Shown one piece after another: positions 11,329 to 38,732 of a DNA stretch of 64,000 nucleotides. The notes under the pieces were generated by a model. That model was not told where the DNA came from, made no database searches, and saw only the letters and a program-made list of their open reading frames with translations. Location: the sequence record MK509462. One strand, written 5' to 3'. Position 1 is the first letter of the stretch; each line of letters begins with the position of its first letter. The translations under genes and the position numbers were made by a program. The stretch comes from Shigella phage MK-13.

Positions 11329-11997
11329 ATGCAAGAGATCACTCTCTCCGAACGTACACTCCAGTTGCTGGCCAACTTTGAGACCATCAACCCATCTATC
11401 GTTCTGACACCGGGTAAGATGCTGCGCAGCATTAACGATTCGTCTACTGTTATCGCCGTGGCACAGATCGAAGAAGACTTCCCGTTTGAGTTCCCTATCC
11501 TGGACCTGACCAAACTTCTGGCCATCCAGCGCCTGCCTTCCTTCAAAGGCGGTAAAGCCGAATTCCATCAGGACTACATCCTGTTGAAAGGCGAAAGCTC
11601 TCAGCTGCAATTCTGGCGTTCTGCTAAAGAACTCACTGTTGTTCCGGCTGACACCATTGAACTGCCGTCTGTCGACTTTGAAGCGATCATCACTCCAGAG
11701 AAGATGAAAGAACTGACCCGCGCCTGTTCTACCCTCGGTCACAAGACTGTGCGCCTGGTTGCTCAGGGTGGCAAAACTCGTCTGGTTGCAACCACCACTA
11801 CCCTGGATAACTCCAACAACTACACCGTTGAGCTGGGTGAAACCGCGCTGCCGGACTTCGTCATGCCACTGGACGTTGCCAACCTGAAGATGATCGAAGG
11901 CAACTACACTCTGCGTGCCTGCGCTGAGCTGCAGATGGTGAACTTCCAATCATCCGACGCGACGATCAATTACTTCGTCGGCGCACAGATTGAGTAA
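11329..11997 (+). CDS. sliding clamp, gp45-like
   Basis: Length and sequence pattern match T4 gp45; precedes gp44/gp62 as in T4. Confidence 0.9.
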   Translation: MQEITLSERTLQLLANFETINPSIVLTPGKMLRSINDSSTVIAVAQIEEDFPFEFPILDLTKLLAIQRLPSFKGGKAEFHQDYILLKGESSQLQFWRSAKELTVVPADTIELPSVDFEAIITPEKMKELTRACSTLGHKTVRLVAQGGKTRLVATTTTLDNSNNYTVELGETALPDFVMPLDVANLKMIEGNYTLRACAELQMVNFQSSDATINYFVGAQIE

Positions 11998-12078
11998 TCA
12001 ATCTCCAGCCTGATGCTATAATGTGTGGGCGGGGGCGTTCCCCGCCTATTTGAAATGATTCTTCTACACGAGGCTGAA

Positions 12079-13068
12079 ATGTCTAATATCACTATCGTTT
12101 CCGACCAGTACGCATGGGAAAACAAGTACCGCCCTGACAACCTGGACGAGATCATCATCCCTCAAGACGTCCGCGCTAAAATCCATGGCTACATTACCAG
12201 TGGCAACGGTAACATCCCGTCTATGCTGTTCTACTCCCCTCAGCCTGGTACTGGCAAGACTACCTCTGCCCTGGCCGTGTGTAATGAAATCGGCTGTAAG
12301 CAACCACTGATGATCAACGCATCCCTGGACAACAGCATCGACGTTATCCGTGACCGCGTGATTCAGTACTCTACTGGTGTGAGTGTATTCGGTGGCCGCA
12401 AAGTCGTTATCCTCGACGAAGTAGAGCGTCTGTCTATGGCGGCACAGGAGTCGCTGAAGGGTATTGTGGAGAAGGTCTCCAAGAACTGTTCATTCATCCT
12501 GACCACCAACGCCAAGCAACGTGTGAACGAACCTCTGCGCTCTCGTTGCCGTGAAATCGACTTTATCTGGAATGAGACCGAGGCTGATGAGGTAAAACTT
12601 CAGTTCATGCGCCGCTGTGCTGAAATCCTTCGCAGCGAAGGTGTTGAGTATGACCCTCCTGTGTTGGCTGCTATTGTCAAACGTCATTTCCCCGATAACC
12701 GCCGCATCATGGGTGCCCTACAGGATAACGTCACCACCTACGGCAAGATCGATGAACGCGCCCTCGCCGTATTGAAATCTGCCGACATGGGTGTGTTGGT
12801 TGATATGCTGAAAGGCAATGACTGGGCTGGCATGAAGCAGTGGGTGACTGACAACCAGAACTACATCACCGAAGACTTCTATTCCCGCTTCTTCCAGTTC
12901 TGTGTACCACAGGATAAAGAGAAGCCGATGCTGGTTCAGAATGAGTCTATCCCTGATCTGGTATGCGTATGTGGTCAGTCTCAGATTGAACACCGTCAGG
13001 TCGGCGATGTCTGGCTGCATGCTGTGTTTTTCCTGACCAACGTCATGCTCAACATCAAGTGGAAGTGA
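12079..13068 (+). CDS. clamp loader large subunit, gp44-like (AAA+)
   Basis: Walker A PQPGTGKTT, DEVE box, SRC motif; T4 gp44-like N-terminus. Confidence 0.9.
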   Translation: MSNITIVSDQYAWENKYRPDNLDEIIIPQDVRAKIHGYITSGNGNIPSMLFYSPQPGTGKTTSALAVCNEIGCKQPLMINASLDNSIDVIRDRVIQYSTGVSVFGGRKVVILDEVERLSMAAQESLKGIVEKVSKNCSFILTTNAKQRVNEPLRSRCREIDFIWNETEADEVKLQFMRRCAEILRSEGVEYDPPVLAAIVKRHFPDNRRIMGALQDNVTTYGKIDERALAVLKSADMGVLVDMLKGNDWAGMKQWVTDNQNYITEDFYSRFFQFCVPQDKEKPMLVQNESIPDLVCVCGQSQIEHRQVGDVWLHAVFFLTNVMLNIKWK

Positions 13069-13072
13069 TACT

Positions 13073-13495
13073 ATGGCCGCCCCTGGATTGTTCGATTACC
13101 TGGCTGCTCTGAACAGCAGCAAAGAAAACCTTCTGCAGTCTGATGACCCAGAAGTGTTGAAAGGATTCGACCCGTTTATGACGCGGCGTGGTTTAGCTCA
13201 GAGCAAAGACACTCTGGTGACTGCACAGCAGATGAACAAGCTGCATGCCGTTACTCCATGGATGCAATGGTCATATGCCTTTCACACCATTCCGGCGCGG
13301 AAACGCTACGACAAATGGTCTAAGAAAGGTCCGATTGATCCTGACGTGAAGTTGCTCTCCGAGTACTTCTACATCAGCATGGAGAAGGCATCCGAGTACG
13401 TCCGTTTCTTGCCGAAGGAAGTCCTGGCCGAGATACGCGAGAAGATGGGACGTACTGAGCTGAACGCCAAAGCGAAACCGCGCAAGGCTAAGTAG
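13073..13495 (+). CDS. clamp loader small subunit, gp62-like
   Basis: Position after gp44 and block ARKRYDKWSKK resembling T4 gp62 RGKRYGKWAKL. Confidence 0.75.
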   Translation: MAAPGLFDYLAALNSSKENLLQSDDPEVLKGFDPFMTRRGLAQSKDTLVTAQQMNKLHAVTPWMQWSYAFHTIPARKRYDKWSKKGPIDPDVKLLSEYFYISMEKASEYVRFLPKEVLAEIREKMGRTELNAKAKPRKAK

Positions 13496-13524: not shown

Positions 13525-13989
13525 ATGGCGCGCAATACGCTAGACATATTGAACATTTCAGCCGTCAACGATGAGGCCAGCATCGTTGATTGTATGGTTG
13601 AAGTTCAATTGAACCAAGATCGGCCAGGAATATTCCTGGGGATCAAGGAAACACTGAGCCGAATTGGGGTAAACACGCGCCAAGAGCCGAATACTCTGTA
13701 TCAGACTTGTCATATTCTTCACAAGTATGGCAAGTATTATATCGTCCACTTCAAGCATCTGTTTATGCTGGACGGGCATTACAACGGGTTTAACCGCGAA
13801 GATGTCCTGAGGATGAACCGCATCATCAAGCTGCTCGAGCAGTGGAATATGGTGAAGGTCATTCATCCCGAGCAGGTCACCGAAGCCGCCGATATGTCAC
13901 GCATTAAAGTGGTTAAACACGATCAGGTTCCTGAATGGAAGCTGGTTCCAAAATACATTATCCGGCCTACAAAGGCCAAAAGCGAATAA
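13525..13989 (+). CDS. regA: translational repressor RegA
   Basis: Strong similarity to T4 RegA (LYQTCHILHKYGKYYIVHFKHLF...EWKLVPKYIIRP). Confidence 0.85.
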   Translation: MARNTLDILNISAVNDEASIVDCMVEVQLNQDRPGIFLGIKETLSRIGVNTRQEPNTLYQTCHILHKYGKYYIVHFKHLFMLDGHYNGFNREDVLRMNRIIKLLEQWNMVKVIHPEQVTEAADMSRIKVVKHDQVPEWKLVPKYIIRPTKAKSE

Positions 13990-14005: not shown

Positions 14006-14875
14006 ATGACAACTACATTTTCTAAGAACGTGAATCTGAATCTGGCTTTCGGTAATGCAAAGGGCGATGTCACATCGCCCGACTTTGGTAAGATCCGCAA
14101 TCAGGCGAAACTGGTGCTGGAAGAGACCCGTGAACTGTTGGAGGCGGCGTACTACGATTGCGATGTGAAACTGGATCTGGTGCTCACACCTAAACAAGAA
14201 CCTTACCAGACCAGAACCATTCAGGAAATCCTGAAGGATATCATGGACGCCCAGGGTGATATCACCACTGTCAACGACGGTGTGGCTCATATTGCTGGTT
14301 TCGACGGTGACGAATGCTTACAGCGCGTGTATGCCTCTAACATGAGCAAGTTCATTCGTAATGAAGGTGAAGTTGTGCCTGCACTGGATTACTACTACAA
14401 CAAAGGCTTCCCACGCGAAAGTCTGCGCATCGAAGGGGAATTCCCCCAGGCGTGCATCAAAGTGGTAGACACCATCACCGTCGACGGCAAAGAGTACCCG
14501 GCTGGTAAGTTCCTGAAGAACATGGCAACCTTCAAAGAGCCGGACTTCAGTGATATGCTGACCACCGAGCCTAAGCGCCAGATCACCGAAATCATTCTGA
14601 CGGGCACGGCTACCCCAGGTCGACTCGGATGCAACGAACACGCTGGTGTTGCCTTCGCTCCGTTCGACTTTGTTGACGAGATCGTGGGATACACCAAGAT
14701 GGGCTTCCAGGCGTTCTCTGGCGAAACAGTCGAGAGTTATATTCCCGTGTTTGTTTTCAATGAAGACAACTTCCCAACTCTACCGTTGATCTGGGGTGAA
14801 TGGAAAGCCAACGTCCGTATCTATGTGGCCAGCCCAGTGCAATCATCTATCACCCAGCTGACCCGTATCGATTAA
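14006..14875 (+). CDS. hypothetical protein; N-terminus possibly MazG/gp56-like all-alpha NTP pyrophosphatase
   Basis: LVLEETRELLEAAYYD resembles the EExxE metal-binding helix of MazG-type enzymes; rest unassigned. Confidence 0.3.
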   Translation: MTTTFSKNVNLNLAFGNAKGDVTSPDFGKIRNQAKLVLEETRELLEAAYYDCDVKLDLVLTPKQEPYQTRTIQEILKDIMDAQGDITTVNDGVAHIAGFDGDECLQRVYASNMSKFIRNEGEVVPALDYYYNKGFPRESLRIEGEFPQACIKVVDTITVDGKEYPAGKFLKNMATFKEPDFSDMLTTEPKRQITEIILTGTATPGRLGCNEHAGVAFAPFDFVDEIVGYTKMGFQAFSGETVESYIPVFVFNEDNFPTLPLIWGEWKANVRIYVASPVQSSITQLTRID

Positions 14876-14944: not shown

Positions 14945-16165
14945 ATGAAAGATAAAGCCCTGGACGTCCCGTACTGCGGTGTCCGTGAAGAAAAGATAAA
15001 GTCGGCCAAACCGGTTCTCAGTCCGACCCATACCCGCCTTTCTTACGAATGGATGAGCGAGCGCTATAAGATCCACGTCAAGAAGGACGTCCAGCGTCTT
15101 CCTGCTCCTTGGACGAATAATCCTATACTACGGCAGGTCAAGTTCTGTAACGTCCGGAGAGAGCACGACAGGCAGTCTCTTAACCTGATCAACAACATCG
15201 TCAACAACGATGCTCTGGGTATGGCAGACAAGATGTTTAACTGCGTGCTGTTCCGCATGTTCAACCTCTGGGATCCGATCCAGGCTATCGGCGGCGCGAT
15301 GGCGATCAAAGAATTCGCCAAGATCAACCTTGACGCAACCCGCGAACGACTTCAGAAGTTCGAGGCCGACGGCGGCAAGGTGTTCACCAATGCCTTCAAC
15401 ACAGGCGGCCTGAAGCAATGCCTGGCTTTCCCTGAGCTGGTTGTCAACCACAAAGAGCAGCGCTTCGGTGGGATGATGGTGAACCTGATCTGTAAGGACG
15501 GTTCGACCCAGAACATGGATTATAAGGAAGCCAAGGCTATTGCTGAAGCAGAGCCGGACTTCTACACCATAGAAGGCTGGGAGCCGTACATGCCAATGCG
15601 TGTCATCCGTTCCCTGAAGGCATTCGTCAACAAGTATCCAAATTACTTCCATGACCTACTGCGCCTTGGTACTCCTCTGGAAGTATACCAGCGCATGTAC
15701 GACGACATCGAAGGTCTTGGTCCATTCCTGGCCTATCAGATCTGGGTTGATTTCACGTACATGCCTGGTTATCCGTTCAGTGAGAACCACTTCACGATCG
15801 CCGGACCGGGCTGTCGCGCAGGTATTGATCTGCTGTTCCTGAACAAGGACGGCATGACTCACGAAGAATGCATATTCTGGCTACGGGATAATCAGGACGC
15901 AGTATACTCCCAATATGGGTATGTTCGCGAGCAATTCTGGTCGGCCGAAGAGCCTGTAGACCAATGCATGAACGTTATGCAGCTGGAGAACATGTTCTGT
16001 GAACTGAGCAAGTACACTCGCTGTGTTGAGGCGGTTGGGCGCGGTGAAAAACCTCGGGGCAAGGTCAGCTATGACGGCGGTGGGGAATACAAAAAGCGCT
16101 GTGATGAAGTCGTGCTCAAACGTGGTTCCGTCAATTTGCTGGACCGTTTGAAGAAACCTGAATAA
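14945..16165 (+). CDS. hypothetical protein (406 aa)
   Basis: Long ORF with AGAGGA RBS; no motif recognised. Confidence 0.6.
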   Translation: MKDKALDVPYCGVREEKIKSAKPVLSPTHTRLSYEWMSERYKIHVKKDVQRLPAPWTNNPILRQVKFCNVRREHDRQSLNLINNIVNNDALGMADKMFNCVLFRMFNLWDPIQAIGGAMAIKEFAKINLDATRERLQKFEADGGKVFTNAFNTGGLKQCLAFPELVVNHKEQRFGGMMVNLICKDGSTQNMDYKEAKAIAEAEPDFYTIEGWEPYMPMRVIRSLKAFVNKYPNYFHDLLRLGTPLEVYQRMYDDIEGLGPFLAYQIWVDFTYMPGYPFSENHFTIAGPGCRAGIDLLFLNKDGMTHEECIFWLRDNQDAVYSQYGYVREQFWSAEEPVDQCMNVMQLENMFCELSKYTRCVEAVGRGEKPRGKVSYDGGGEYKKRCDEVVLKRGSVNLLDRLKKPE

Positions 16166-16280: not shown

Positions 16281-18299
16281 ATGTCAGAATTTAAGCCCTT
16301 CGCAGTAGCCGTAAACAATAATGTGCTGGCCATGTCAGCAACTGGTCTGTTCATGACCAACATCGATAAAGATGCTCTGTGGGATCTGTACCTGAACTCT
16401 TTCCCTGCTGGCACCAACCCGCTCTACCGTGAGCGCACCGAGCACGACTGCACCTGCTGTAAACAATTCATCCGTAACATCGGCGGTGTGGTGACCATCG
16501 ACGCCGACCTGAACGTGATCTCTATCTGGGATAACATTCAGCTGGGTAACGAATACGACGTTGTCGCTGCGGCGCTGTCTGCGTATGTCAAGCAACACGC
16601 AATCGTCGACGTGTACTTCAACGATACCAAGAAAGTCGGTGTTGAGTCGAATCACGAAATGAAAGACGGTAATGTCCGCACCTACAACCACTTCCACACC
16701 GACCTGCTGCCCAGCTATGTTCTGCGGGCTGATGCCATCGCTTCTAAGAAGGGTGAAATCCGCCAGGCGATTGAAGTGTTTGAGCGCGGCCTGCGTGAAC
16801 TGTCTCTGGAATCGGCCGAAATCGTTCTGGAACTGATTGATCAGAATTCTCTGTATCGTGGTGAAGAGCACAAAGCTGCTGTGCAGGCGTTCGTGACGAG
16901 CAAGACCATGTACGAACAAACTGCAGAAGAGAAACGCGCTCTGTGGGCTTGGCGTACTGGCTACCGTGCAAACGGACACACCCCTCACGGCATCCGCAAT
17001 ACCGTGATTGGCTCTCTGTTGGTAGACCTCAATGAAGGTCGGGATCTGGAAACCGCCGTGAAGTCCTTTGAAGCCAAAGTCGCTCCGACGAACTACAAGC
17101 GCCCAACCGCGCTGGTCACGAAGTCCATGATTGAAAACGCGCAGAAAGAAGTCGAAGCGCTGGGTCTGACTGATTCACTGGGTCGCCGTTATGCCGTGTA
17201 TGACGATCTGACCATCAACAACGTTTTGTTTGCCGACCTGGCAGCACAGAAGAAGATGGACCCGTTTGCTCAGCTGGCGTCTGAAGTGAAGACTCCGACC
17301 AAGTCCCTGGACAAGGTTGAAGAGATCACCATCGACGACTTCCTGACCAACGTGTTGCCAAAGGCGCATTCCCTGGAAGTGCTGGTTGAGAACTCTCACA
17401 CTGGCAACCTGATGTCCCTGATCGCCCCGGCTACGGTGGGTGCTCCTAACCTGTTCAAGTGGAACAACGGCTTCAGCTGGTCATACAATGGCGAAGTGGC
17501 CGACTCCATCAAAGAGCGCGTGAAGACAGCAGGCGGCAACGTCGACAGCTTCCTCCGTGTGTCGCTGGCGTGGCATAACAACGACGACCTGGATCTGAGC
17601 CTGAACGATCCTCTTCACAACCACGTGTATTTCAACAACCGTCGTTCGGCAACTGGTGCAACCCTGGACATCGACATGAACGGTATGGACGGTATTGACC
17701 CGAACCGCCGTCCGGTGGAGAACATCTTCTTCAGCGATGAACGCAAGCTGCGTGACGGGAACTATGAGTTCTATGTCACCAACTACAGCAAGCGCGAAAC
17801 CTGCGATGTGGGCTTCGAAATCGAAGTTGAATACAAAGGCCAGACCAAGCGCTTCTCGCATCCTGGTCTGGGTAACAAAGACCGCACGTTGGCTGTTGTG
17901 GTTCAGGTACGCGCTGGTCAGGTGGTCGACATCAGTTCTACCCTGAAAGACGACGCTCGCTCTCAGGAAATCTGGGGCATCAAGACCTCCGTCTTCCAGA
18001 AGGTACAGCTGGTTCTGAACTCACCAAACCATTGGGACGGCGAGCAGACGGGCAACAAGCACGTGTTCTTCATCCTGGAAGGTTGTGCTAACCCTGTCGG
18101 CACCCGTGGCTTCTACAACGAATATCTGAAGCCGGAACTTGATAAACACCGCAAGGTTTTTGAAATGTTAGGTGGTAAGATTAAAGTACAGCCAAGCACT
18201 GAGCAGCTGTCCGGTCTGGGCTTCTCTACCACCCAACGCAACCACGTGTTCGTGAAGGTGAGCGGCTCGTTCAACCGCACTGTGAAAGTTGTGTTCTAA
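16281..18299 (+). CDS. hypothetical large protein (672 aa) with N-terminal Cys cluster
   Basis: Long ORF with AGGAAG RBS; HDCTCCKQF motif; no catalytic family recognised. Confidence 0.6.
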   Translation: MSEFKPFAVAVNNNVLAMSATGLFMTNIDKDALWDLYLNSFPAGTNPLYRERTEHDCTCCKQFIRNIGGVVTIDADLNVISIWDNIQLGNEYDVVAAALSAYVKQHAIVDVYFNDTKKVGVESNHEMKDGNVRTYNHFHTDLLPSYVLRADAIASKKGEIRQAIEVFERGLRELSLESAEIVLELIDQNSLYRGEEHKAAVQAFVTSKTMYEQTAEEKRALWAWRTGYRANGHTPHGIRNTVIGSLLVDLNEGRDLETAVKSFEAKVAPTNYKRPTALVTKSMIENAQKEVEALGLTDSLGRRYAVYDDLTINNVLFADLAAQKKMDPFAQLASEVKTPTKSLDKVEEITIDDFLTNVLPKAHSLEVLVENSHTGNLMSLIAPATVGAPNLFKWNNGFSWSYNGEVADSIKERVKTAGGNVDSFLRVSLAWHNNDDLDLSLNDPLHNHVYFNNRRSATGATLDIDMNGMDGIDPNRRPVENIFFSDERKLRDGNYEFYVTNYSKRETCDVGFEIEVEYKGQTKRFSHPGLGNKDRTLAVVVQVRAGQVVDISSTLKDDARSQEIWGIKTSVFQKVQLVLNSPNHWDGEQTGNKHVFFILEGCANPVGTRGFYNEYLKPELDKHRKVFEMLGGKIKVQPSTEQLSGLGFSTTQRNHVFVKVSGSFNRTVKVVF

Positions 18300-18343: not shown

Positions 18344-18715
18344 ATGTTTGATAAAGCAACCCGTCTGAAACTGCGCTTCGAATCCAACAAAGGTCTGCTG
18401 TCTGTTGAGCAGGTCTGGGATCTGAGCCTGACTGCCCTGAACGAAATGGCGAAAAGCCTGAGCCGTCAGGTGAAGGCAGCGGAAACCGATGAAGAAGATT
18501 TCATCGGCACCAAAAGCAACGTTGACTCCGAACTGCAGCTGCGCTTCGACGTTGTCAAGCACATCATCGGCGTTAAGCTGAAAGAGCGTGACGACAGCAA
18601 AGACGCGGCAGAGCGTAAGGCGAACAACCAGGTTATCCTGGAGCTGATCCAGCGTAAGAAACAGCAGGAGCTGGAAGGCAAATCTGTTGAAGAACTGGAA
18701 GCGCTGCTGAAATAA
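18344..18715 (+). CDS. hypothetical charged helical protein (123 aa)
   Basis: ORF with GAGGA RBS, followed by terminator. Confidence 0.5.
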   Translation: MFDKATRLKLRFESNKGLLSVEQVWDLSLTALNEMAKSLSRQVKAAETDEEDFIGTKSNVDSELQLRFDVVKHIIGVKLKERDDSKDAAERKANNQVILELIQRKKQQELEGKSVEELEALLK

Positions 18716-18730: not shown

Positions 18731-18757
18731 AACCCCGCCATGTGCGGGGTTTCTTTT
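18731..18757 (+). terminator. rho-independent terminator
   Basis: aaccccgccatgtgcggggtt followed by T-run. Confidence 0.7.
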
Positions 18758-18768
18758 GGACAAAGAAT

Positions 18769-19170
18769 ATGAAACCTGTCATCTGTGATTACTGCGGCCT
18801 CCCAGCCGAATTCGTCGGTGGTGACGTCCTCCACCCTCATCGCCCTGACCTCCGCAATCTGAAGTTCTGGGTATGCACTCCATGTGGCGCTCGCGTCGGT
18901 TGCCATGCCCATGGCGACGGTAGACAACCTCTGGGAAGGATGGCGAATGCCGCTCTCCGTGCCGAGAAGCGAAAAGCCCATAGATCGTTTGACCCATTGT
19001 GGAAAAGCGGAGAGAGGAGCAGGAGCGACGCTTACAGTTGGCTGGCGCATAAGCTGGGGATCAAGAAGCGTGATTGCCATATCGGCTTGTTCGATATCGA
19101 CATGTGCCGTAAAGTAGTTGTTGTATGCAACCAATTACGGGAAACACAGAATGGCAACCATCAATCGTAA
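18769..19170 (+). CDS. zinc-finger protein (Cys/His-rich, 133 aa)
   Basis: CDYC...C..CGARVGCH Cys/His cluster. Confidence 0.5.
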   Translation: MKPVICDYCGLPAEFVGGDVLHPHRPDLRNLKFWVCTPCGARVGCHAHGDGRQPLGRMANAALRAEKRKAHRSFDPLWKSGERSRSDAYSWLAHKLGIKKRDCHIGLFDIDMCRKVVVVCNQLRETQNGNHQS

Positions 19171-19945
19171 TGAACCCAAAGGTGTTGAGCTGAAGGGTAA
19201 ATCTGTTCGCGAAGGTCTGAAGCTGTCTCCAGACCTCCTGAAGTCCCACATTGCTGAAGTCATCTATGAAGACCGTGAAGTCGGTGGTCATCGTGTCATC
19301 ACCTGCCATTTCAAGATGGACAACGGCTTTGTCGTCTTTGGTAAGAATAGCTCTACTTCCATCGACCCTGCCAACTTTGATGAAGAGTTGGGCAAGAAGC
19401 TGGCCTATGACAAGACTTTCTCCCAGTTGTGGGAACTGGAAGCCTACCGCGCCGTTGTGGAGAAGCAGATGTTGGAGGTGGCTACCGCCGATGCGAAGAT
19501 AGACATTTTCCAGTACATCTTCGAAAGGGGGAAGATAAACCAGATGGCTGGTATGGCATTCTTGAAAGGTCATAGCCAGTCTTTCGTGTTCCATCATCCA
19601 CGAGACCCAAGTCGCGGATTCGGTGCTGAATTTATTCATACCGACAACGAACTTCACAATGACCAACACAACAGCAAAGTCCAGGCCAGAGTGGAAACAT
19701 ATTTGCGTTCACACATGCGGCCTGATGAACTGTATTCTGAACTCGTTGTTCGCCTGGCCAAGACTTGCACGGCGGCTTACAAGGGTGGGATCTACTTTAA
19801 TGCCACCACTTGGGATAAGATGAGCGCCGAAGAGCAGAAAGGCTGCTGTGAAGACATTAGGCGGCTCTTGCTGGCTCCGGCGGATTATATCCCAACCGAC
19901 CAGAAGGACGCGCTGTTCAAGGCCATCGTCGATTCCTACAAATAA
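19151..19945 (+). CDS. hypothetical protein (264 aa)
   Basis: ORF overlapping upstream gene end; no motif recognised. Confidence 0.5.
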   Translation: MATINRNEPKGVELKGKSVREGLKLSPDLLKSHIAEVIYEDREVGGHRVITCHFKMDNGFVVFGKNSSTSIDPANFDEELGKKLAYDKTFSQLWELEAYRAVVEKQMLEVATADAKIDIFQYIFERGKINQMAGMAFLKGHSQSFVFHHPRDPSRGFGAEFIHTDNELHNDQHNSKVQARVETYLRSHMRPDELYSELVVRLAKTCTAAYKGGIYFNATTWDKMSAEEQKGCCEDIRRLLLAPADYIPTDQKDALFKAIVDSYK

Positions 19946-20055: not shown

Positions 20056-20910
20056 ATGTTTCGTTTGAAATTGAACGACCAAGATGTGTTCTACAAACAC
20101 TTCACCTTCCCAGGTGGTGAGGAACATATCAAGATCCAAAAGTCTGGTATCCCTATCGGCCACGTCCAGAACGTGGCGATTGATGCTCACATCAAATCAT
20201 CAGCCGACTTCGTTGAGCTGGCACTGCTGGTTAACGCCGTGCGCGGCCTGGGTAACGTGGACCGTCTGACGACCTTCCATGCGTATATCCCTTACTTCCC
20301 GTATGCTCGCCAGGACCGCCATTGCGACTTCGGCGAGCCTCTGTCCGTGAAGTGGGCGGCTGAGTTCATCAATAGCATGAACTTTGACCGCGTGGCGATC
20401 AAAGACCCTCACAGCCATGTTGTGTCTTCTCTTATCAACAACGTCCATGTGGTCCCGCAAGATTACATCGTGCGGCAGTATCTGGGCTGGTTCATCCGTG
20501 GGAACAACGCTGTGTTGGTAGCCCCTGACGGCGGCGCGGCTAAGAAGACCGAAGCCCTCAGCCTGTCTCTGGATGGCGTTCCTGTTGTCTACGGACACAA
20601 GAACCGTGACGCCAAGACTGGTGAGATCATTGGGGTGAGTATTACAACCCCTGAACTGATCAAAGACCGTTATCTGGTGGTGGTCGATGATATCTGCGAC
20701 GGTGGGCGCACGTTCGTTGAGTTAGGCAAAGAGCTTCAGAAGCACAAGCCCAAACACATGACGCTCTTCGTTACCCATGGCATCTTCAGCAAAGGGCTTT
20801 CCGTGTTCGACGGGATCTACGATGCTGTGTATGCCGACACTGTCTGGTGGGAGAATATCACCGCCGACGGTCTTCCTTTCAAAACTGAAAATACAGGACG
20901 TGTAAAATGA
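20056..20910 (+). CDS. ribose-phosphate pyrophosphokinase (Prs)-like; candidate ADP-ribose pyrophosphokinase
   Basis: Prs signature YFPYARQDR and PRPP-binding loop VVVDDICDGGRT. Confidence 0.85.
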   Translation: MFRLKLNDQDVFYKHFTFPGGEEHIKIQKSGIPIGHVQNVAIDAHIKSSADFVELALLVNAVRGLGNVDRLTTFHAYIPYFPYARQDRHCDFGEPLSVKWAAEFINSMNFDRVAIKDPHSHVVSSLINNVHVVPQDYIVRQYLGWFIRGNNAVLVAPDGGAAKKTEALSLSLDGVPVVYGHKNRDAKTGEIIGVSITTPELIKDRYLVVVDDICDGGRTFVELGKELQKHKPKHMTLFVTHGIFSKGLSVFDGIYDAVYADTVWWENITADGLPFKTENTGRVK

Positions 20911-28707: not shown

Positions 28708-29021
28708 TGAAAGGTAAAATCCTACTCCTGCTGTTACTGATGGCCGGGTGTGTAAACGCCACACCACCGTCTAAACTGAATACCTGCGCCGCCTGGATGG
28801 AGACGTATCAGCAATTCCATCCGGACGACAAAGATACATCTATCCTCCTGTCTGACTTCGAGGGAGAGCTGAAGCGCCTTGATCTGTTCAGTGTTGATCA
28901 GATAGAGAATGCGCTGGACCTACCAATGATGATGTCTGCGGCCGAAAACAGCCCACAAACGAAGAAAGACCTGATGTATTGTCGGGGGATTGCCCAGGAC
29001 TTTGTCGGATTTCAAAAATAA
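28707..29021 (+). CDS. putative lipoprotein (104 aa)
   Basis: MKGKILLLLLLMAGC: signal peptide with lipobox L-M-A-G-C. Confidence 0.5.
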   Translation: MKGKILLLLLLMAGCVNATPPSKLNTCAAWMETYQQFHPDDKDTSILLSDFEGELKRLDLFSVDQIENALDLPMMMSAAENSPQTKKDLMYCRGIAQDFVGFQK

Positions 29022-29072
29022 GTTTCGGGTTAAAATTTAGCCCTACATTGTGAACTGAAGGAATACACTGTG

Positions 29073-31075: not shown

Positions 31076-31354
31076 ATGAATCGTACTGAATTTGTTGCCC
31101 ACATTGCTTCGACCCAGAACATCACCAAAGGCGAAGCGGAGAAAGTAGTGGCATCCTTTATCGACGGCGTTAAAACTGCAGTTGCTGCAGGTGCGTCTGT
31201 ACAGCTGGTCGGCTTCGGCGCGTTCGAAGTGAAGCACCAGGAAGCTCGTGAAGGTCGTAACCCTCTGAACGGCCAGACCATTCAGATCGAAGCGAAAAAC
31301 GTTGTGAAATTCAAAGTGGGCGAAGGTCTGAAGAACGCTGCCAACGGCAAGTAA
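31076..31354 (+). CDS. HU/IHF-family DNA-binding protein
   Basis: Near full-length match to bacterial HU: MNRTEF...VQLVGFGAFEVKHQEAREGRNPLNGQTIQIEA. Confidence 0.85.
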   Translation: MNRTEFVAHIASTQNITKGEAEKVVASFIDGVKTAVAAGASVQLVGFGAFEVKHQEAREGRNPLNGQTIQIEAKNVVKFKVGEGLKNAANGK

Positions 31355-31483: not shown

Positions 31484-33202
31484 GTGACAGCATTCAACCA
31501 ATATACCAAGGCGCTTGATGGCGTCGGACCAGTTAGCATAGACCGCATCAAGTCTCTTGCCACTGAGTTCTTCCCATACGACACCGCCAACCCAGGACAG
31601 ATGGAGTGCATCGTTGAAGCCGTTGATGCCCTTGTGAATAAGAAATTCAAACACGTGATCATCGAGGCTCCGACTGGTGTGGGCAAATCCCTCATTGGCA
31701 CTACCATCCATAACGTGCTTCGCCATCTGGTTCTTGAGCGCAACCCATATGGTCAGTTCCGCACGTCTATCACAACACCGACCAAAGGGTTACAAGATCA
31801 GTATGCGGCTGAAAGGGCAGTGGCGATAGACATCCTGAAGGGCAAGAAGAACTATCGTTGTCATATCAGCCCTGACCTGTATTACAATGCTATCCAGTGC
31901 CGTATGGCATGCCGAGATGGCCACTGTAATAAAAATCGTTGCCCATATGTTCAGGCTCGTCGTCTTTGGACGGACATCTCTTCTCTGCGCTGCACCAACG
32001 CCGCCATGATGGTGGAGATGTGCACGACGATCTGTATGAAGCCCGAAAACCGCGCCGATATGCTGATCCTTGACGAGTGCCATAAAATGCCCTCTACGCT
32101 CCTAGAGCACACGATCATGGAATACAGCATAAAGGCTGTGGAAGGGTTGCTTACGATCCCCGAGGGAGTGCCTATCGTGGAACTCATCAAGGATATCATC
32201 ATCCGCACAGAGAACTATGAATTGGGCAAGCTGTATTCCCTGTCTGGTGAGATGCATGCGATATTTGACGACCTGCATGACAAGGTTGAAGCCCTGCTGG
32301 AAACCCTTGAGGAACTGGTAGAGGACGAGCGCCTGACTGAAGCCCAGGTGATGAAGTTGTCGGACATCATTGACACCCTTCACAACCTCAGCGACTACTG
32401 TGGGATCATGGGGCAGACCAACGCCAGCACCTTCATCGTGCAGGAGAAGGACAAGGGCATGATTCAGTTCAAGCCTGTCATCGCATCTGATGTATCCCAG
32501 TTCGGCCTGTTCCGCAAGGGTGACTACCACGTTCACATGTCGGCGACCATTTGTGGGATTGACTCGTACGCTCGGTCACTGGGTATCCGTGAGGGCGAGT
32601 ACCACAAGATTCAGATCGGAAACCCTATCCCGATTGAGAACCGGAAAGTCAACTACATGCCCATCATGAAGATGACGGCGAACATGGGTGACTATGAGAT
32701 GAAGAAGCTGGCCGAATACGTGGATGAAATCATCGCATTCCACCCTGGGCAGTCTGGCATCATTCACACAGTAAGTTATGACCGCGCCCTGGCTCTACAG
32801 AAGTTCAGTAAGTACCGGAATATGATTCACGTTCCTCGTACTCGTAAGGCTCTAATGGACATCATGGAACACGCGTTCCGGACCAAGAAGCCTTGTGTCA
32901 TCGCCAGTCCGGCTATGGAAGAGGGGTATGACTTCAAAGGCGATTACAGCCGATTTCAGATCTTGATCAAGGTTCCATACGATTACCTTGGTGATCCTCT
33001 GGTGGCTCACGTCAACAGTGTAGACCCATCGGCGTACTTCAGGATGGCGGTACTGCGTATCGTTCAGATGTGCGGGCGTTCGGTCAGGGGCGTGAATGAC
33101 TGGGCTGCGACATACATCCTTGATTCTTCTTTTGAATCACTGATGATGCGCAACCCAGAGTTCTTCCCCGCTTGGTTTACTGATGCCGTGTTCGAGGTTT
33201 AG
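31484..33202 (+). CDS. DinG/XPD-like SF2 helicase with Cys-rich (Fe-S-type) insertion
   Basis: Walker A APTGVGKS, DECH box, eight Cys between them; GTG start with TAGGAGG RBS. Confidence 0.7.
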   Translation: MTAFNQYTKALDGVGPVSIDRIKSLATEFFPYDTANPGQMECIVEAVDALVNKKFKHVIIEAPTGVGKSLIGTTIHNVLRHLVLERNPYGQFRTSITTPTKGLQDQYAAERAVAIDILKGKKNYRCHISPDLYYNAIQCRMACRDGHCNKNRCPYVQARRLWTDISSLRCTNAAMMVEMCTTICMKPENRADMLILDECHKMPSTLLEHTIMEYSIKAVEGLLTIPEGVPIVELIKDIIIRTENYELGKLYSLSGEMHAIFDDLHDKVEALLETLEELVEDERLTEAQVMKLSDIIDTLHNLSDYCGIMGQTNASTFIVQEKDKGMIQFKPVIASDVSQFGLFRKGDYHVHMSATICGIDSYARSLGIREGEYHKIQIGNPIPIENRKVNYMPIMKMTANMGDYEMKKLAEYVDEIIAFHPGQSGIIHTVSYDRALALQKFSKYRNMIHVPRTRKALMDIMEHAFRTKKPCVIASPAMEEGYDFKGDYSRFQILIKVPYDYLGDPLVAHVNSVDPSAYFRMAVLRIVQMCGRSVRGVNDWAATYILDSSFESLMMRNPEFFPAWFTDAVFEV

Positions 33203-33966
33203 TAACCAGCGATAAACGACAGATGGCATTTGACATTCGGCTCCAGGGAAGTAACAGAGACTGTCATGCTATCTGTGTCTTGACTGAAGTCAATGGTGGC
33301 GAGAGGTTTGGTCTGAACATGGTTGTAGACGCTGTAGAACAGATCCTCGCCACGATATCCTACTTTTCCGTCGGTGTCCTGCCAATGACCCAGTGTCTCA
33401 TCGTAGACATGCACTCTGAACTCGATCATATGGAAGAGCGCCTTGGGGATGTCCTTGAGTACGCTGGTGCCAACCACAGGGATCTCAATGGAAGAGTCAT
33501 TGGAGTTCCCTTCATAGACCGAAGCCCATGCAAAGGTAGGATCACCCCCAGCAACCGGGGTACGCTTCCAGTATTGGAATTCGGGGTTGCCTGAAGCGTT
33601 CTTCTGAAGTAGAATGACCTCACCACCCGTGAAGTTCGCGGTGTCGATGTCGCCTCGCTCAAGTTCATCTGCCGGAGACCCAATAAATTTCCAGCCTTCG
33701 CGATCCAGTAAAGACTTATAATAGTCAGTGAACACGTTGCTGTCTTCTGCAGCGTTGATGGCATCTTTGAGGCCTTGGCCTGTTACCATCTCGTTGAGCT
33801 TCAACCACATGTTCTTGACGGCAGACGCTGCTGCGACTTGCCCAACAGTCCCACCTGCAGCATAATCATAGATGATATCTTCTGACTTGATAGCATCATT
33901 GATAGAAAGGAGCAATTGCTCAATCTGCGGGGCGGTGAGACTGAAACGATATGCGCGGGGTGCCAT
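33199..33966 (-). CDS. hypothetical late protein (255 aa), probably virion-associated
   Basis: Minus-strand ORF with GAGGAA RBS and an exact TATAAATA late-promoter motif about 35 nt upstream. Confidence 0.5.
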   Translation of the reverse strand: MAPRAYRFSLTAPQIEQLLLSINDAIKSEDIIYDYAAGGTVGQVAAASAVKNMWLKLNEMVTGQGLKDAINAAEDSNVFTDYYKSLLDREGWKFIGSPADELERGDIDTANFTGGEVILLQKNASGNPEFQYWKRTPVAGGDPTFAWASVYEGNSNDSSIEIPVVGTSVLKDIPKALFHMIEFRVHVYDETLGHWQDTDGKVGYRGEDLFYSVYNHVQTKPLATIDFSQDTDSMTVSVTSLEPNVKCHLSFIAGY

Positions 33967-34001
33967 AGTTTCATTCCTCTTTCTATAAAACCAGTTTGGG
34001 A

Positions 34002-34009
34002 TATTTATA
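34002..34009 (-). promoter_or_regulatory. T4-type late promoter motif TATAAATA (minus strand)
   Basis: Exact TATAAATA on minus strand upstream of 33966 start. Confidence 0.5.
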
Positions 34010-34011
34010 TC

Positions 34012-34539
34012 ATGATAGAAATTTATTCTGACGGGGGTTCTAACCCGAAGACCAACCAGGCCGCAGGATGGGCATTTGTCATCAGGCCAATATCGGGTAT
34101 GCAATGGAAGGTGTTCTTCGGTCACCTGCCTCCCCCGTCCACCAACAACATCGCCGAGTTGTTGGGTGTGACCAACGCATTGAAGCTGCTGTGGGCATTC
34201 TCAGGAAAGGGTGAGCGCAGAATACCAAAGGCAACAATTTGGTCTGACAGTCAATACACCATCAAGAGCGTCACCGAATGGCGAGCGAAGTGGGAGTATC
34301 AGGGTTTCCCAGACAAGAACGTTGAACTCATCAAAGATCTGTTCAGAATCTATGATCTCGTTTGTTCAATTTGTGAAGTTGAACTAAAATGGGTTAAGGG
34401 TCATGCGGGGCACGAAGGTAACGAACTTGCCGATGACTGGGCCACAGCAGCCAAAAACGACAGCAACTTCCTGATTGAGAATGACAAGATCTCAGTGAAG
34501 AAGGTTGTTGGATCTTTTGATGAATTTATCGGTATCTGA
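34012..34539 (+). CDS. rnhA: ribonuclease HI
   Basis: DGG...TNNIAEL...SDSQY...KWVKGHAGHEGNELADDWA matches RNase HI DEDD active-site pattern. Confidence 0.85.
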   Translation: MIEIYSDGGSNPKTNQAAGWAFVIRPISGMQWKVFFGHLPPPSTNNIAELLGVTNALKLLWAFSGKGERRIPKATIWSDSQYTIKSVTEWRAKWEYQGFPDKNVELIKDLFRIYDLVCSICEVELKWVKGHAGHEGNELADDWATAAKNDSNFLIENDKISVKKVVGSFDEFIGI

Positions 34540-34550: not shown

Positions 34551-35279
34551 ATGGGTATGAATTATGTTGATCGTGGCGAGAATGTCGTCAAATATTTCAC
34601 GGACGAAGATAACGAGCGTGTCATCAGTATCCTTCGTGATTGGATCCCTGCTCGTAAGAAGGCTCTGGCTGAAGGCACCAGGCTTCCAAAGATCCCCAAC
34701 TATGTTGCTCTACAGGTCCAGCGCATCATCACCAAGATGAGCACCCGCTACAACTATCGCGACTATCCCTTCCGTGAAGACATGGTCTCTGAAGCAATCG
34801 TCAACATCCTGCGTTACCTCCACACCTTTGACGTCGACCACATTGGAAAGAAAGGGAAGATCAACTTCTTCTCTTGGGTGACCATGTGTGCGGATCGCTC
34901 ATTTGCTCGTAAACTGAATATCGAAGAAGAACATACGTACATCAAATTGCGCTCATTTGAAGAGGCGGGTGGGTTCGCAGGCCTAGCAGACGATCCCGAC
35001 TTCCAACAAGAGATCTTTGTTGACGCGACAGGGATTGGTATGGACTTCCGTGAACGTATCGGCAACTTTGAGAACAAAAAGGACGCTCAAAGGCAGAAGG
35101 AGCGAGAGAAGGTGGAGGCAGCTCGTCTCGCAGAATCGAATAAAAAGATTGCGAAAGGCATACTTCAATACATGGCGCAGGCTAAGAATACGGTAACAGC
35201 GCAGGCCGAAGACAATTCAGATCAGGACTTCGGCAAAACCCAATTCGATTTGGACGAAACCGAAGGAGAAACAGAATAA
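34551..35279 (+). CDS. late-transcription sigma factor, gp55-like
   Basis: Central region resembles T4 gp55 (ILRDW...NILRYLHTFD vs IIDW...IKGLHNFD); precedes gp47/gp46 as in T4. Confidence 0.7.
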   Translation: MGMNYVDRGENVVKYFTDEDNERVISILRDWIPARKKALAEGTRLPKIPNYVALQVQRIITKMSTRYNYRDYPFREDMVSEAIVNILRYLHTFDVDHIGKKGKINFFSWVTMCADRSFARKLNIEEEHTYIKLRSFEEAGGFAGLADDPDFQQEIFVDATGIGMDFRERIGNFENKKDAQRQKEREKVEAARLAESNKKIAKGILQYMAQAKNTVTAQAEDNSDQDFGKTQFDLDETEGETE

Positions 35280-36394
35280 TGGCGATTGCTAAAATCGGCG
35301 ATCTGCATATCGGGAGCCGTAATGGTTCCCGTTACGTTCGCGACTTCATCAAGAACTACCTCATCAATTATTTCATCCCTGAACTTGTCGCCTCCGACAT
35401 CCATGAGGTGTGGCAGTTTGGTGACACATTTGATGTCCGCAAATTCATGTACGGTCGTGACAAGGACTGGTTGAAAGATGAGCTGACTCCGGCGCTGAAA
35501 GAGGCTGGTATCAAGTGGAATGGCATTGTTGGCAACCACGACATCACCCTGGAAGAGTCCAACCGCATCAACTGGCCATCCTACCTGAACGAACTCGACC
35601 CAGATGTGTACTGCTACTACAGCGAACCGACCGAAGTGATGATCGAGGGTGTCAAGACTCTGCTCCTACCGTGGATCAATAAGGAAAACTACGATGCATC
35701 TATTGCGGCGATACACGCTACGGACGCCAAGTACTGTTTTGCGCATCTGGAGTTGGCGGGGTTCAAAATGTACCAGTCCTCTACTTGTGATCACGGTCAG
35801 ATCGACGTTGCGCTCCTTTCCAAGTTTGACAGGGTCGACACGGGGCATTTCCATACCCGTTCGATGGAAGGTAACATTCAGTATCTTGGGACTCCGTATC
35901 ACCTGAATTGGGAAGACTACAAAGACGGCACCAACCGTGGCTTCTATGTGGACGACATGCGCGGCGGAGAGGTATTCATCCCCAACAGCGAGCACCAGAC
36001 GTTGTTCCGCTATGTGGAGTATGACTACACCAAGCTGTCCTCAGACGATGAGGGTAACTGGATCGACCCGGAATGGCTGAACACAGGCTTGGGTATTGAA
36101 GGACAGATCGTTAAGGTAATCGTACAGAACCGCGACAATGCTAAGCATTATGAAAAGTTCTGTGATGCCATGAAGCGCTGCAAGTGCATTGACTACAACT
36201 TCATCGACCGGACTATCACCGTGGCGGCTGAGAAGGTTGAGGTCACCGAAGAGATGGTGGCAACCGATGCAGTGGAAGTCCTGAAGAAGGATATCCGCGC
36301 CGGGAACAACATCCAGCGCCCTGAAAACGTCTGTAAACTTGCAGAGCACTTCTACAATGCTGCCCAACAACGCCTGAACAAACTGGACGCATAA
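35279..36394 (+). CDS. recombination nuclease subunit gp47-like (Mre11 family)
   Basis: Phosphoesterase motifs GDLH, GDTFD, GNHD, H..H; T4 gp47-like. Confidence 0.85.
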   Translation: MAIAKIGDLHIGSRNGSRYVRDFIKNYLINYFIPELVASDIHEVWQFGDTFDVRKFMYGRDKDWLKDELTPALKEAGIKWNGIVGNHDITLEESNRINWPSYLNELDPDVYCYYSEPTEVMIEGVKTLLLPWINKENYDASIAAIHATDAKYCFAHLELAGFKMYQSSTCDHGQIDVALLSKFDRVDTGHFHTRSMEGNIQYLGTPYHLNWEDYKDGTNRGFYVDDMRGGEVFIPNSEHQTLFRYVEYDYTKLSSDDEGNWIDPEWLNTGLGIEGQIVKVIVQNRDNAKHYEKFCDAMKRCKCIDYNFIDRTITVAAEKVEVTEEMVATDAVEVLKKDIRAGNNIQRPENVCKLAEHFYNAAQQRLNKLDA

Positions 36395-36395
36395 C

Positions 36396-38732
36396 ATGAC
36401 TCAGAGCACAGATATCCTGGCCAAATTTGGCAATCTTTTGAAGGAAGCCGACACTCCGGTTGAGGTCGAAGTCCCATTTGAAGTGCGTGACAACATTACG
36501 CACAAACTGACCTTCCGCAAAGGCCGTGCCAAGAACTTCCGCTCCATCGGTAATCAGTTCATGGAGATTGATTACCAGCGCAACCCGGCTACCCTCGTCA
36601 CGTCTGACGATAACGGCGCGGGTAAATCCACGATGCTGGTGTGGCTGCTGTTCTTCGTACTGTACAACGACACGTACAGCAAGAAGGAGAAGAAGGCAGG
36701 CCTGGTAAACTCACAGAGCCGCAAGGAATGTGTGGGTGAGGTGGAGTTTGCCTGCCGTGGTAGCGAATGGAAGGTTCGCCGTGGCATTAAACCTGACTTT
36801 GTTGAAGTCTACCAGATGGTGGACGGCAAGTGGTTGCAGATCGATAACGAAGCAGCCAAAGCCGACATGAACAAGTACATCGTGAACCTCATCGGCGTGG
36901 ACCAGAAGATGTTTGAGAACTCTCTGGTGCTGGGCAAAGAGAAGTTCATTCCGTTCACGGAGATGTACACCGCCGACCGCCGCGCCATGGTGGAGACTAT
37001 CTGGGACTTGGGCTTCTTCAGCCTGATGAACGAAGATGTCAAGGCGTCCATCAAGAAAGCGAACGAAAAGCTGGACACGATCGCGAATGAATGTGCGTTG
37101 AAGGTTGTTGACCACACCAACAAGAAGACGCAGCTGCAGCAGATAGAGCAATCCAATGCCCTTATCCAACAGCAGTCGGCCGATATCCTTGTACAGCAAC
37201 AGGAAGCCCTGGTATCGCTGGACGCTGACATTGCCGCGCAGAATGAGGAGCGCACCCGTCTCACTGCCGTGGAATTCGAAGCCACTCAGGAAATGAAGAC
37301 GGTGGAAAGCCGCCTGCATGACGAATCCATGGTGGAGATCGAGGCTGTCAAGAAAGACTTTGAAGCCAAGATCCAGGCGGTGAAGGATGCCGCTCAGGAA
37401 AAGGCCGATGATTATGAGCGCATCGAAGTGTCTACTGCGGAGCATGATCTTCAGGTCTTGCGTGACCGCGCCTTTACGGTGGCCGAAAGCAAGAACACCC
37501 TGCTCACCGAGCGCAACGCCAACCTGGACACCCTGAACGCTGCTATCCAGCGCCGCCAACAGGGTGAGAACTTCCGTATCCGTTTCCAAACAGAAATGGA
37601 TGGTCATCAAGCGGCCATCAAGCGCTTCCACGATATGGGGACTTGCCCAACATGCACCCAGCTGGTGTCCGACGATACCAAAGCGCGCATTGAGAGCGAG
37701 TACAGCCCTCAGATACAGGAACTGCAGGCGAAGTTGGATCAGCTGGATAAGGTCACTGCCGATGTCACAACCCTGATTGATGGTCACAAGGCTCAGGACG
37801 ACAAGCTGGTTGCTGACATTGCTGTGTTGGATGCCGAACTGGATGCAATGCGCAAGCAGGCCGACGAAATCGTTGACAACATCAAGCAGCTGCACCGTGA
37901 CATTCAGGGCTTCCATGAAGCGGCCACGATTGAGTGTAATTCGCTGAACCGTGAATGCCAACAGAAGATCCTTGACATCCGCAAGGCGTTGAACGTTCGT
38001 TTTGAAGATATCACTGCGTCGCTGCAACAGACGCGAGAGAATGCCGTCAGCGGGATTAAAGCCGTCGATGATAAGATCGCCGAGCTGAAAGCCCGTCGTG
38101 CTCCTCTCGTGGCGTCCATTGCCGATCTGGAGCGTAAACTGGCTGTAAAGCCGACGCCTACCGCCGACCTGGAGAACTCTATCGCTGCGTTGGAAGGTGA
38201 ACTGGAGGCTCTGTATGAACTCCGTGAAGATGCAGATGAGGAACTCCAGGATCTACAGCACCTGTTATTCTTCCTGAAGGATGACCAGACCAAGGCGCGC
38301 ATCATCGCCCTGTACTTGCCATTCCTCAATAGCAAGATCAACGAGTATCTTGAAGCCCTCAACATGTTCTTGGACATCGTTGTTGACGATACCTTTGAGA
38401 TCACGATGAGCGCAGCAGGCCGCAAGGGGCAGAGCATCTTCTCCCTGTCTACTGGCCAACGCAGCCGCCTGAACCTGGCTGTGACACTGGCTCTGCGCGA
38501 CGTGGCTAACCTCAAGGCATCGGTGCAATGTAACCTGTTTGTCCTGGACGAAATCCTTGAGAACATGAGCGAGCGCGGGGTGCAGGAATCGGTTGAGATG
38601 CTGAAGCATAAGTTCGGCGGGAACAACCTGTTTGTCATCAGTCAGCGTGAGCAGGAGTTCCAAGAGTACTTCCCTCACAACATCCGCTATGGCCTGCGCA
38701 ACGGCCTGACCGAAGTTATCAAGAAGGATTGA
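36396..38732 (+). CDS. recombination ATPase subunit gp46-like (Rad50/SbcC family)
   Basis: Walker A DNGAGKST, long coiled coil with CPTC zinc hook, C-terminal signature and D-loop (LFVLDE). Confidence 0.9.
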   Translation: MTQSTDILAKFGNLLKEADTPVEVEVPFEVRDNITHKLTFRKGRAKNFRSIGNQFMEIDYQRNPATLVTSDDNGAGKSTMLVWLLFFVLYNDTYSKKEKKAGLVNSQSRKECVGEVEFACRGSEWKVRRGIKPDFVEVYQMVDGKWLQIDNEAAKADMNKYIVNLIGVDQKMFENSLVLGKEKFIPFTEMYTADRRAMVETIWDLGFFSLMNEDVKASIKKANEKLDTIANECALKVVDHTNKKTQLQQIEQSNALIQQQSADILVQQQEALVSLDADIAAQNEERTRLTAVEFEATQEMKTVESRLHDESMVEIEAVKKDFEAKIQAVKDAAQEKADDYERIEVSTAEHDLQVLRDRAFTVAESKNTLLTERNANLDTLNAAIQRRQQGENFRIRFQTEMDGHQAAIKRFHDMGTCPTCTQLVSDDTKARIESEYSPQIQELQAKLDQLDKVTADVTTLIDGHKAQDDKLVADIAVLDAELDAMRKQADEIVDNIKQLHRDIQGFHEAATIECNSLNRECQQKILDIRKALNVRFEDITASLQQTRENAVSGIKAVDDKIAELKARRAPLVASIADLERKLAVKPTPTADLENSIAALEGELEALYELREDADEELQDLQHLLFFLKDDQTKARIIALYLPFLNSKINEYLEALNMFLDIVVDDTFEITMSAAGRKGQSIFSLSTGQRSRLNLAVTLALRDVANLKASVQCNLFVLDEILENMSERGVQESVEMLKHKFGGNNLFVISQREQEFQEYFPHNIRYGLRNGLTEVIKKD

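Follow-up and report, generated by a model that had tools for sequence, protein, structure and literature searches.

We have analyzed a stretch of 64 kb from the genome of Shigella phage MK-13 (MK509462; this whole stretch is hereafter the window), in which two groups of T4-type genes, gp45-gp44-gp62-regA (the clamp block) and gp55-gp47-gp46, appear in an order that is not the one of T4. The apparent rearrangement of T4 modules is the published, already known architecture of a well-studied phage family, the Ackermannviridae. The window, on which the placement rests, is almost certainly a part of an Agtrevirus genome (Ackermannviridae, Aglimvirinae; ViI-like phages of Enterobacteriaceae) that carries the fixed gene order of this family. 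No sequence inside the region that holds both blocks (11-39 kb, the finding region) is new.

The two blocks had been described in an earlier note, made from the sequence without database searches, as located on the + strand about 20 kb apart with the clamp block upstream, and their coordinates and identities hold. They contain the following genes:

11329-11997, + strand, gp45 sliding clamp (30% identity to T4 gp45, E 5e-15; weak Pfam gp45-slide_C)
12025-13068, + strand, gp44 clamp-loader large subunit (31% to T4 gp44, E 6e-48; Pfam AAA and Gp44_lid)
13073-13495, + strand, gp62 clamp-loader small subunit (24% to T4 gp62, E 2.5e-6; Pfam Phage_clamp_A 2.7e-11)
13525-13989, + strand, RegA translational repressor (43% to T4 RegA, E 1e-30; Pfam Translat_reg 1.9e-34)
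34551-35279, + strand, gp55 late sigma factor (phrog_234 'late sigma transcription factor', 3.6e-52)
35279-36394, + strand, gp47 (Mre11/SbcD-like) recombination nuclease subunit (33% to T4 gp47, E 6e-31; phrog_100 1.9e-106)
36396-38732, + strand, gp46 (Rad50/SbcC-like) recombination nuclease subunit (26-32% to T4 gp46 in three segments, E 1e-19; Pfam SMC_N)

The gap between the blocks (13990-34550) measures 20.56 kb and contains 26 open reading frames (ORFs). A direct BLASTP of gp55 against T4 gp55 gave no match, and its identity to the gp55 of S-PM2 was 31% (E 1.7e-11).

To locate the closest genomes, positions 11000-35900 were used as a megablast query against the GenBank phages, and 290 records matched, nearly all of them Ackermannviridae. 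The best match was Shigella phage ChubbyThor (OL615013; 99% coverage, 96.1% identity), followed by Salmonella phage SKML-39 (NC_019910; 96% coverage, 96.4% identity) and, among the further top matches, by SW16-7, P46FS4, Gloob and Shigella phage Ag3. The close matches are classified as Agtrevirus, Aglimvirinae, Ackermannviridae. The parts of the window outside the query were likewise collinear with Agtrevirus genomes, and each of four window segments was 96-98% identical over 80-100% to genomes of this genus, above the threshold that the ICTV sets for a genus (~70% nucleotide similarity over the genome). Both the nucleotide similarity and the ViI-like gene order place the 64 kb in Agtrevirus. 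Identity multiplied by coverage was ~95% for 11000-35900 against ChubbyThor, the species criterion being 95% over the full genome, and ~79-89% for 35900-60800 against the best genomes.

At the base level we compared the window with five Agtrevirus genomes (ChubbyThor, SKML-39, Ag3 NC_013693, P46FS4 NC_049509 and Gloob OL615011). For each kilobase of the finding region, one or more of them reached 95% identity or better, and mostly 98% or better. ChubbyThor aligned with the region as a single collinear stretch, broken only at two extra endonuclease genes of its own. The closest genome differed from kilobase to kilobase along the region, a shift that is expected from recombination within the genus.

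The order was then compared over the homologous 42-50 kb of these five genomes and of phages PhiSH19, XF4, cp18 and KNP4, with RB43, T4, PhiW-14 and S-PM2 as comparators, each protein of the window being located by tblastn in the comparison genomes. Gene order and orientation were identical in Agtrevirus, Limestonevirus (XF4), Kuttervirus (PhiSH19), Taipeivirus (cp18) and Miltonvirus (KNP4). The shared order starts with gp3, uvsY, a nuclease, uvsW, a small minus-strand ORF (not found in Miltonvirus) and 45-44-62-regA, continues with MazG, the 5-hydroxymethyldeoxyuridine (5-hmdU) DNA kinase, DUF8224 and its partner and, further on, the vWFA-domain protein and acyl carrier protein and then the spanins, and ends with HU, a helicase, a minus-strand structural protein, RNase HI and 55-47-46. 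The amino-acid identities went from ~100% in Agtrevirus down to roughly 33-70% in Miltonvirus, and such distances with the same order in five genera indicate that the arrangement predates the radiation of the family. The published annotations of Ag3, SKML-39, P46FS4, PhiSH19 and XF4 give the same genes in the same order. The lineage is well characterised: Ag3 was the subject of a paper in 2011 (PMC3121705), the strong conservation of gene order in ViI-like phages was described with LIMEstone in 2012 (PMC3296691), and a 2024 review attributes to Ackermannviridae 'a more scattered genomic organization' than that of the Tevenviruses (PMC11721090).

The five Agtrevirus relatives, at 96-98% nucleotide identity and with identical gene order over the whole window, share the T4-like blocks, the intervening genes and the uvsY-exonuclease-uvsW group, and differ by small indels only. 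ChubbyThor has an extra 'putative endonuclease' between uvsY and the exonuclease (ChubbyThor 8634-9337; window junction 8337) and an extra NUMOD3 gene before the i-spanin (ChubbyThor 28934-29792; window junction 27941-27955). SKML-39 is without the ADP-ribosyltransferase-like ORF at 26110-26637 and carries a further small ORF behind DUF7425, and the Ag3 annotation shows NAMPT only, with no separate RPPK. The other genera, namely Kuttervirus (ViI, PhiSH19), Limestonevirus (LIMEstone1, XF4), Taipeivirus and Miltonvirus, keep the order at 33-90% amino-acid identity. The RPPK-NAMPT pair is missing from Kuttervirus, Taipeivirus and Miltonvirus, and Limestonevirus keeps only a remnant of it. In Kuttervirus PhiSH19 and Limestonevirus XF4 a homing endonuclease, which the window lacks, separates RNase H from gp55, and XF4 also has an intron-like insertion in uvsW. 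The variable extras of this region in the relatives are mostly homing endonucleases, and none was found in the finding region of the window. The gp45 gene product is 99-100% identical across Agtrevirus and Limestonevirus. The start of gp44 is uncertain: the longest ORF in the window begins with GTG at 12025, and the relatives give either 1044 nt (ChubbyThor, Gloob) or 990 nt (SKML-39, Ag3, P46FS4).

Upstream of the clamp block are located the structural and recombination genes that complete the backbone:

847-2178, + strand, gp23-like major capsid protein (36% to T4 gp23, E 2e-64; 35% to S-PM2 gp23)
7342-7842, + strand, gp3-like tail completion protein (tblastn to T4 gp3, E 5e-7; annotated gp3 in Ag3)
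7885-8337, + strand, UvsY recombination mediator (Pfam UvsY 2.1e-11; 28% to T4 UvsY, E 4e-4)
8337-9083, + strand, PD-(D/E)XK exonuclease between uvsY and uvsW (Pfam PDDEXK_1 1.7e-7)
9112-10620, + strand, UvsW helicase (33% to T4 UvsW, E 3e-84; Pfam UvsW_N, ResIII and Helicase_C)

The first of them, annotated as major capsid protein in the relatives, is outside the finding region and anchors the synteny of the backbone. UvsY, the nuclease and UvsW are arranged head to tail, and the extra nuclease gene that had been pointed out between uvsY and uvsW is confirmed as a PD-(D/E)XK nuclease. SKML-39, Ag3, P46FS4, Gloob, ChubbyThor, PhiSH19 and XF4 all carry an annotated 'exonuclease' in this place. 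The nuclease is not new either, since in Delftia phage PhiW-14 a homologue (34% identity, E 1.6e-30) adjoins uvsY and the Ag3 annotation mentions an S-PM2 homologue.

That the window represents a divergent lineage of the T4 superfamily, as the earlier note had proposed, is borne out. In the NCBI taxonomy the order Pantevenvirales unites Ackermannviridae with Straboviridae, the family of T4, and with Kyanoviridae, that of the T4-like cyanophages, and the core-gene set of this order (gp23, gp3, gp45/44/62, gp55, gp46/47, uvsW/uvsY, gp61, nrdAB, gp32 and gp5) was found in the window. A T4 match was obtained for 17 of the 89 window ORFs, to which uvsY and gp55 were added by Pfam, PHROG and the comparison with S-PM2.

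The comparison with T4 itself gives an impression of heavy shuffling. The T4 order from which the rearrangement had been deduced, 55-47-46-45-44-62-regA-43, was verified in NC_000866 as an order, but it is only loosely contiguous, with ~3 kb (a-gt, mobB and small ORFs) between 55 and 47; rpbA/45.2 is found between 46 and 45. The homologues of gp45, gp44, gp62, RegA, gp47, gp46, UvsW and UvsY are at 24-43% identity to T4 and preserve the order and co-orientation within blocks. Between blocks, T4 has 55 ... 47-46-45-44-62-regA-43 in one transcription direction, whereas in the window the clamp block comes first, 20.6 kb separate the two and gp43 is not adjacent. The contiguous Tevenvirinae-type cluster is therefore not found here, the blocks being swapped and gp43 absent from the window. 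Besides, uvsW and uvsY of T4 face each other as convergent, adjacent genes and have no nuclease in between.

Against S-PM2 (Kyanoviridae) the window is nearly collinear. In this cyanophage the order, on one strand, is gp20-21-22-23-gp3-uvsY-uvsW-55-47-46-(peptidase, CobS)-45-44-...-62-regA, followed by ...-43-uvsX-41-MazG-...-61-nrdA-nrdB. The backbone gp22-gp23-gp3-uvsY-uvsW ... gp61-nrdA-nrdB is collinear in both; the differences are that the clamp and 55-47-46 blocks are exchanged, that 43, uvsX and 41 are absent from the window and that other genes are located between the blocks. PhiW-14 is rearranged in a different way, with uvsW divergent from uvsY-exonuclease and the DNA polymerase adjoining gp3.

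A question compatible with this placement is which of the two orders came first. The clamp-first order of Ackermannviridae could be ancestral for Pantevenvirales, and that of T4 and the cyanophages derived. If Ackermannviridae were sister to Straboviridae plus Kyanoviridae either polarity would take one event, and PhiW-14, which is also peripheral among T4-like phages, has yet another arrangement. However, phages as distant as T4 and S-PM2 share 55-47-46-45-44-62-regA-43, and the window is collinear with S-PM2 outside the swap. With that order common to both Straboviridae and Kyanoviridae, the swap is more likely a derived state of Ackermannviridae, and we see the ancestral alternative as possible although unlikely.

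The earlier note had taken the insertions between the conserved blocks as the likely accessory and novel content. In its strong form, this would mean that a contiguous 55-47-46-45-44-62-regA module was recently split by ~20 kb of accessory, largely novel and lineage-specific genes. Actually, not one of the 26 gap ORFs had a tblastn match at E <= 1e-3 in bases 1-168000 of T4 (genome 168,903 bases), and RPPK-NAMPT and the ADP-ribosyltransferase-like ORF are sporadic, as a recent insertion would have it. However, the same gap genes are in the same order in five genera, with identities down to ~33-70% in the most distant, and all of 11-39 kb has a close published match. Moreover, a clamp block upstream of 55-47-46 needs a transposition or a swap, an order that insertion cannot give. 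We consider a recent insertion very improbable, and the view of the gap as accessory content is largely wrong: its genes are mostly conserved in the family and at least 95% identical to published genomes, well-characterised close relatives have the same order, and the synteny comparison with T4 and other T4-superfamily genomes, when run on the window, gave a family-wide arrangement and not a lineage-specific insertion. Practically no credence can be given to an assembly artefact in which pieces of one or several T4-like phages had been joined into a chimeric contig. We see nothing specific for it beyond a superficially chimera-like shift of the closest relative per kilobase. Against it, 31 independent published genomes each span 80% or more of 11000-35900 in a single collinear place, both GC content and strand bias stay even along the window, and the mosaic of best matches stays in one genus at 95-100% identity, which fits recombination among co-circulating phages.

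We favor, then, a fixed and vertically inherited family architecture, gp23 ... gp3-uvsY-nuclease-uvsW-[45-44-62-regA]-20 kb-[55-47-46] ... gp61-nrdA-nrdB, in which the T4-type core genes form small conserved clusters set among family-specific genes. By homology, the clamp, its loader and gp55 would act in replication and in replication-coupled late transcription as in T4, and RegA would repress the translation of early mRNAs. Gp46/47 together with UvsW, UvsY and the PD-(D/E)XK nuclease would serve recombination-dependent replication. Among the intervening genes, MazG is predicted to sanitise the deoxynucleotide pool, the 5-hmdU DNA kinase to take part in the hypermodification of thymidine after replication, the spanins to act in lysis, and HU, the helicase and RNase HI to bind or unwind DNA, with RPPK-NAMPT as a putative optional cassette of NAD+ salvage. 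Some points weigh against this interpretation. The functions assigned to the modules are predicted by homology alone, the taxa compared do not allow a decision on which way the block swap went, i.e., which order is ancestral, and hallmarks of the family located elsewhere in the genome (tail spikes, other hypermodification genes and DNA polymerase) are outside the 64 kb. Ackermannviridae have up to four clustered tail-spike genes that form a branched receptor-binding complex (PMC11721090), and no such cluster was found within the window.

The main genes recognized in the gap are:

14006-14875, + strand, MazG-like nucleotide pyrophosphohydrolase (phrog_2144 1.2e-131; all five genera)
14945-16165, + strand, 5-hmdU DNA kinase for thymidine hypermodification, same family as ViI gp67 (Pfam HMUDK_hel 3e-81; all five genera)
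16281-18299, + strand, DUF8224 protein of 672 aa (PF26675, precomputed Pfam)
18344-18715, + strand, 123-aa partner of DUF8224 (the module is directly downstream of the 5-hmdU DNA kinase)
18742-19170, + strand, DUF3268 zinc-finger protein (Pfam DUF3268 2.8e-35)
19118-19945, + strand, N4 gp49/Sf6 gp66-family protein (Pfam Phage_gp49_66 4.6e-12)
20056-20910, + strand, RPPK, phosphoribosyl pyrophosphate (PRPP) synthetase (Pfam Pribosyltran and Pribosyltran_N)
20907-22571, + strand, NAMPT (Pfam NAPRTase 6.7e-32)
23054-25339, + strand, vWFA-domain protein of 761 aa (weak Pfam VWA; all five genera; start in relatives ~84 nt downstream)
25382-25708, + strand, acyl carrier protein (weak Pfam PP-binding)
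26110-26637, + strand, small ADP-ribosyltransferase-like ORF of 175 aa (phrog_832 'RNA polymerase ADP-ribosylase', 1.8e-15)
27955-29021, + strand, i-spanin/o-spanin pair (phrog_3843 'Rz-like spanin' 1.7e-54 for 28704-29021; both spanins annotated in ChubbyThor)
31076-31354, + strand, HU-like DNA-binding protein (Pfam Bac_DNA_binding 5.9e-30; all five genera)
31484-33202, + strand, DEAD/Helicase_C_2 helicase (Pfam Helicase_C_2 3.6e-12; all five genera)
33199-34125, - strand, conserved protein (phrog_3833 2.5e-160; relatives annotate a 768-nt version)
33916-34539, + strand, RNase HI (Pfam RNase_H 4.6e-25)

About half of the 26 gap ORFs were detectable in all five genera and most of the others in three or four, the only truly sporadic ones being RPPK-NAMPT and the 175-aa ADP-ribosyltransferase-like ORF. 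The counterpart of 33199-34125 in Limestonevirus XF4 is annotated 'unknown structural protein' and is a virion structural protein there. ViI gp67 is one of two ViI 5-hmdU DNA kinases and its activity was shown biochemically (PMC8989533). Besides the kinase, the 5-hmdU pathway includes aGPT-Pplase2 and a pyridoxal phosphate decarboxylase; its other genes, equivalents of ViI gp226, gp243 and gp247 (PMC8989533), did not turn up among the ORFs scanned in the window and are probably located outside it. The 2024 review (PMC11721090) covers the hypermodification of thymidine to 5-NeOmdU as well as the variable NAMPT/RPPK genes.

RPPK-NAMPT was confined to Agtrevirus among the five genera, apart from a remnant in Limestonevirus with 19% by tblastn, and the two genes are present in 8 of 14 Agtrevirus genomes (AV101 paper, PMC10791037). 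Their products would make PRPP and nicotinamide mononucleotide (NMN) from nicotinamide, a partial salvage of NAD+ similar to NARP2, the reconstitution pathway defined by NAMPT plus NMN adenylyltransferase (NMNAT) (PMC13464706). No NMNAT/CTP_transf_like domain was present among the ORFs scanned in these 64 kb of the genome. The pair would need the host NMN adenylyltransferase or a gene elsewhere in the genome.

The vWFA and acyl carrier protein pair (23054-25708) is also supported by phrog_2426. Homologues of the vWFA protein occur in RB43/KP15-type Straboviridae (46-49% identity) and, at greater distance, in jumbo phages of Rhizobium and Bacillus; in Ackermannviridae the vWFA gene is always followed by that of the acyl carrier protein. 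As a candidate homologue of the 740-aa 'peptidase' of S-PM2, located between gp46 and gp45, the vWFA protein was rejected for lack of similarity (best E 0.88). The ADP-ribosyltransferase-like ORF was found only in ChubbyThor (100%) and Kuttervirus PhiSH19 (56%), being absent from SKML-39, Limestonevirus, Taipeivirus and Miltonvirus. Candidate R-S-E motifs (YRG / SFS / EKE) were picked by eye in its translation. A PDB sequence search gave nothing useful for either of these two proteins.

Homologues of DUF8224 number more than 5400, share ~50% identity and come from many large phages; numerous polar residues are invariant, among them a D-C-x-x-C motif and DDLDLH / LDVDMN motifs. A homologous partner of ~130 aa follows it in two other, unrelated phage genomes or contigs sampled, and in Limestonevirus XF4 the DUF8224 gene is largely gone. 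The AlphaFold (AF2) model is confident (mean pLDDT 82.8). Searched with Foldseek against the PDB it had no match at E <= 0.001 (best 0.011, with low TM-scores), phmmer against the PDB gave nothing, NCBIfam and a local Pfam copy had no match and BFVD yielded only uncharacterised phage proteins. The DUF8224 protein and its partner may be an uncharacterised DNA or nucleotide enzyme, for instance a base-modification step or a regulator, or act in host takeover; we regard this as a speculative suggestion with the odds well against it, its positive support being limited to conservation and neighbourhood.

Downstream of the finding region, the ORF at 39892-40506 (+ strand) goes under the name 'RegB endoribonuclease' in the annotations of ChubbyThor, Gloob, XF4 and PhiSH19. 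In T4 it matches vs.1 (30% identity, E 6e-12) and not regB, with a weak Pfam SLT transglycosylase hit, and the RegB label is probably a propagated misannotation. The ORF at 41650-43746 (+ strand) codes for 698 aa and its Limestonevirus counterpart is annotated 'unknown structural protein'. The middle third (especially 42528-43446) had no close match in the five Agtrevirus genomes, and no phage record matched the protein over its full length at high identity, the matches being piecewise; it looks like a hypervariable, mosaic virion protein. Three other segments (3469-4009, 38954-39283 and 39445-39799) stayed below 85% identity to every one of the five Agtrevirus genomes. The ORF at 39508-39792 showed 93% amino-acid identity to Limestonevirus XF4, which suggests exchange between genera.

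The window has ~50% G+C and nearly all its coding is on the + strand. The T4 late-promoter motif TATAAATA had 2 matches in the 64 kb, not clearly above chance, and a scan of 10.5-30 kb for sigma-70 promoters gave no enrichment over shuffles. We counted 26 terminator-like sites, against 18.7 +/- 4.3 in shuffles. No tRNA genes and no Rfam families were detected in the window.

As the architecture is published and family-wide, the region is not to be mined as novel accessory content. The significance of the result is small; it places the window taxonomically, in Agtrevirus of the Ackermannviridae. A useful pointer that comes out of it is the widespread and uncharacterised DUF8224 two-gene module. 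As a by-product, the backbone of Ackermannviridae is seen to be collinear with that of the cyanophage T4-likes save for one block swap.

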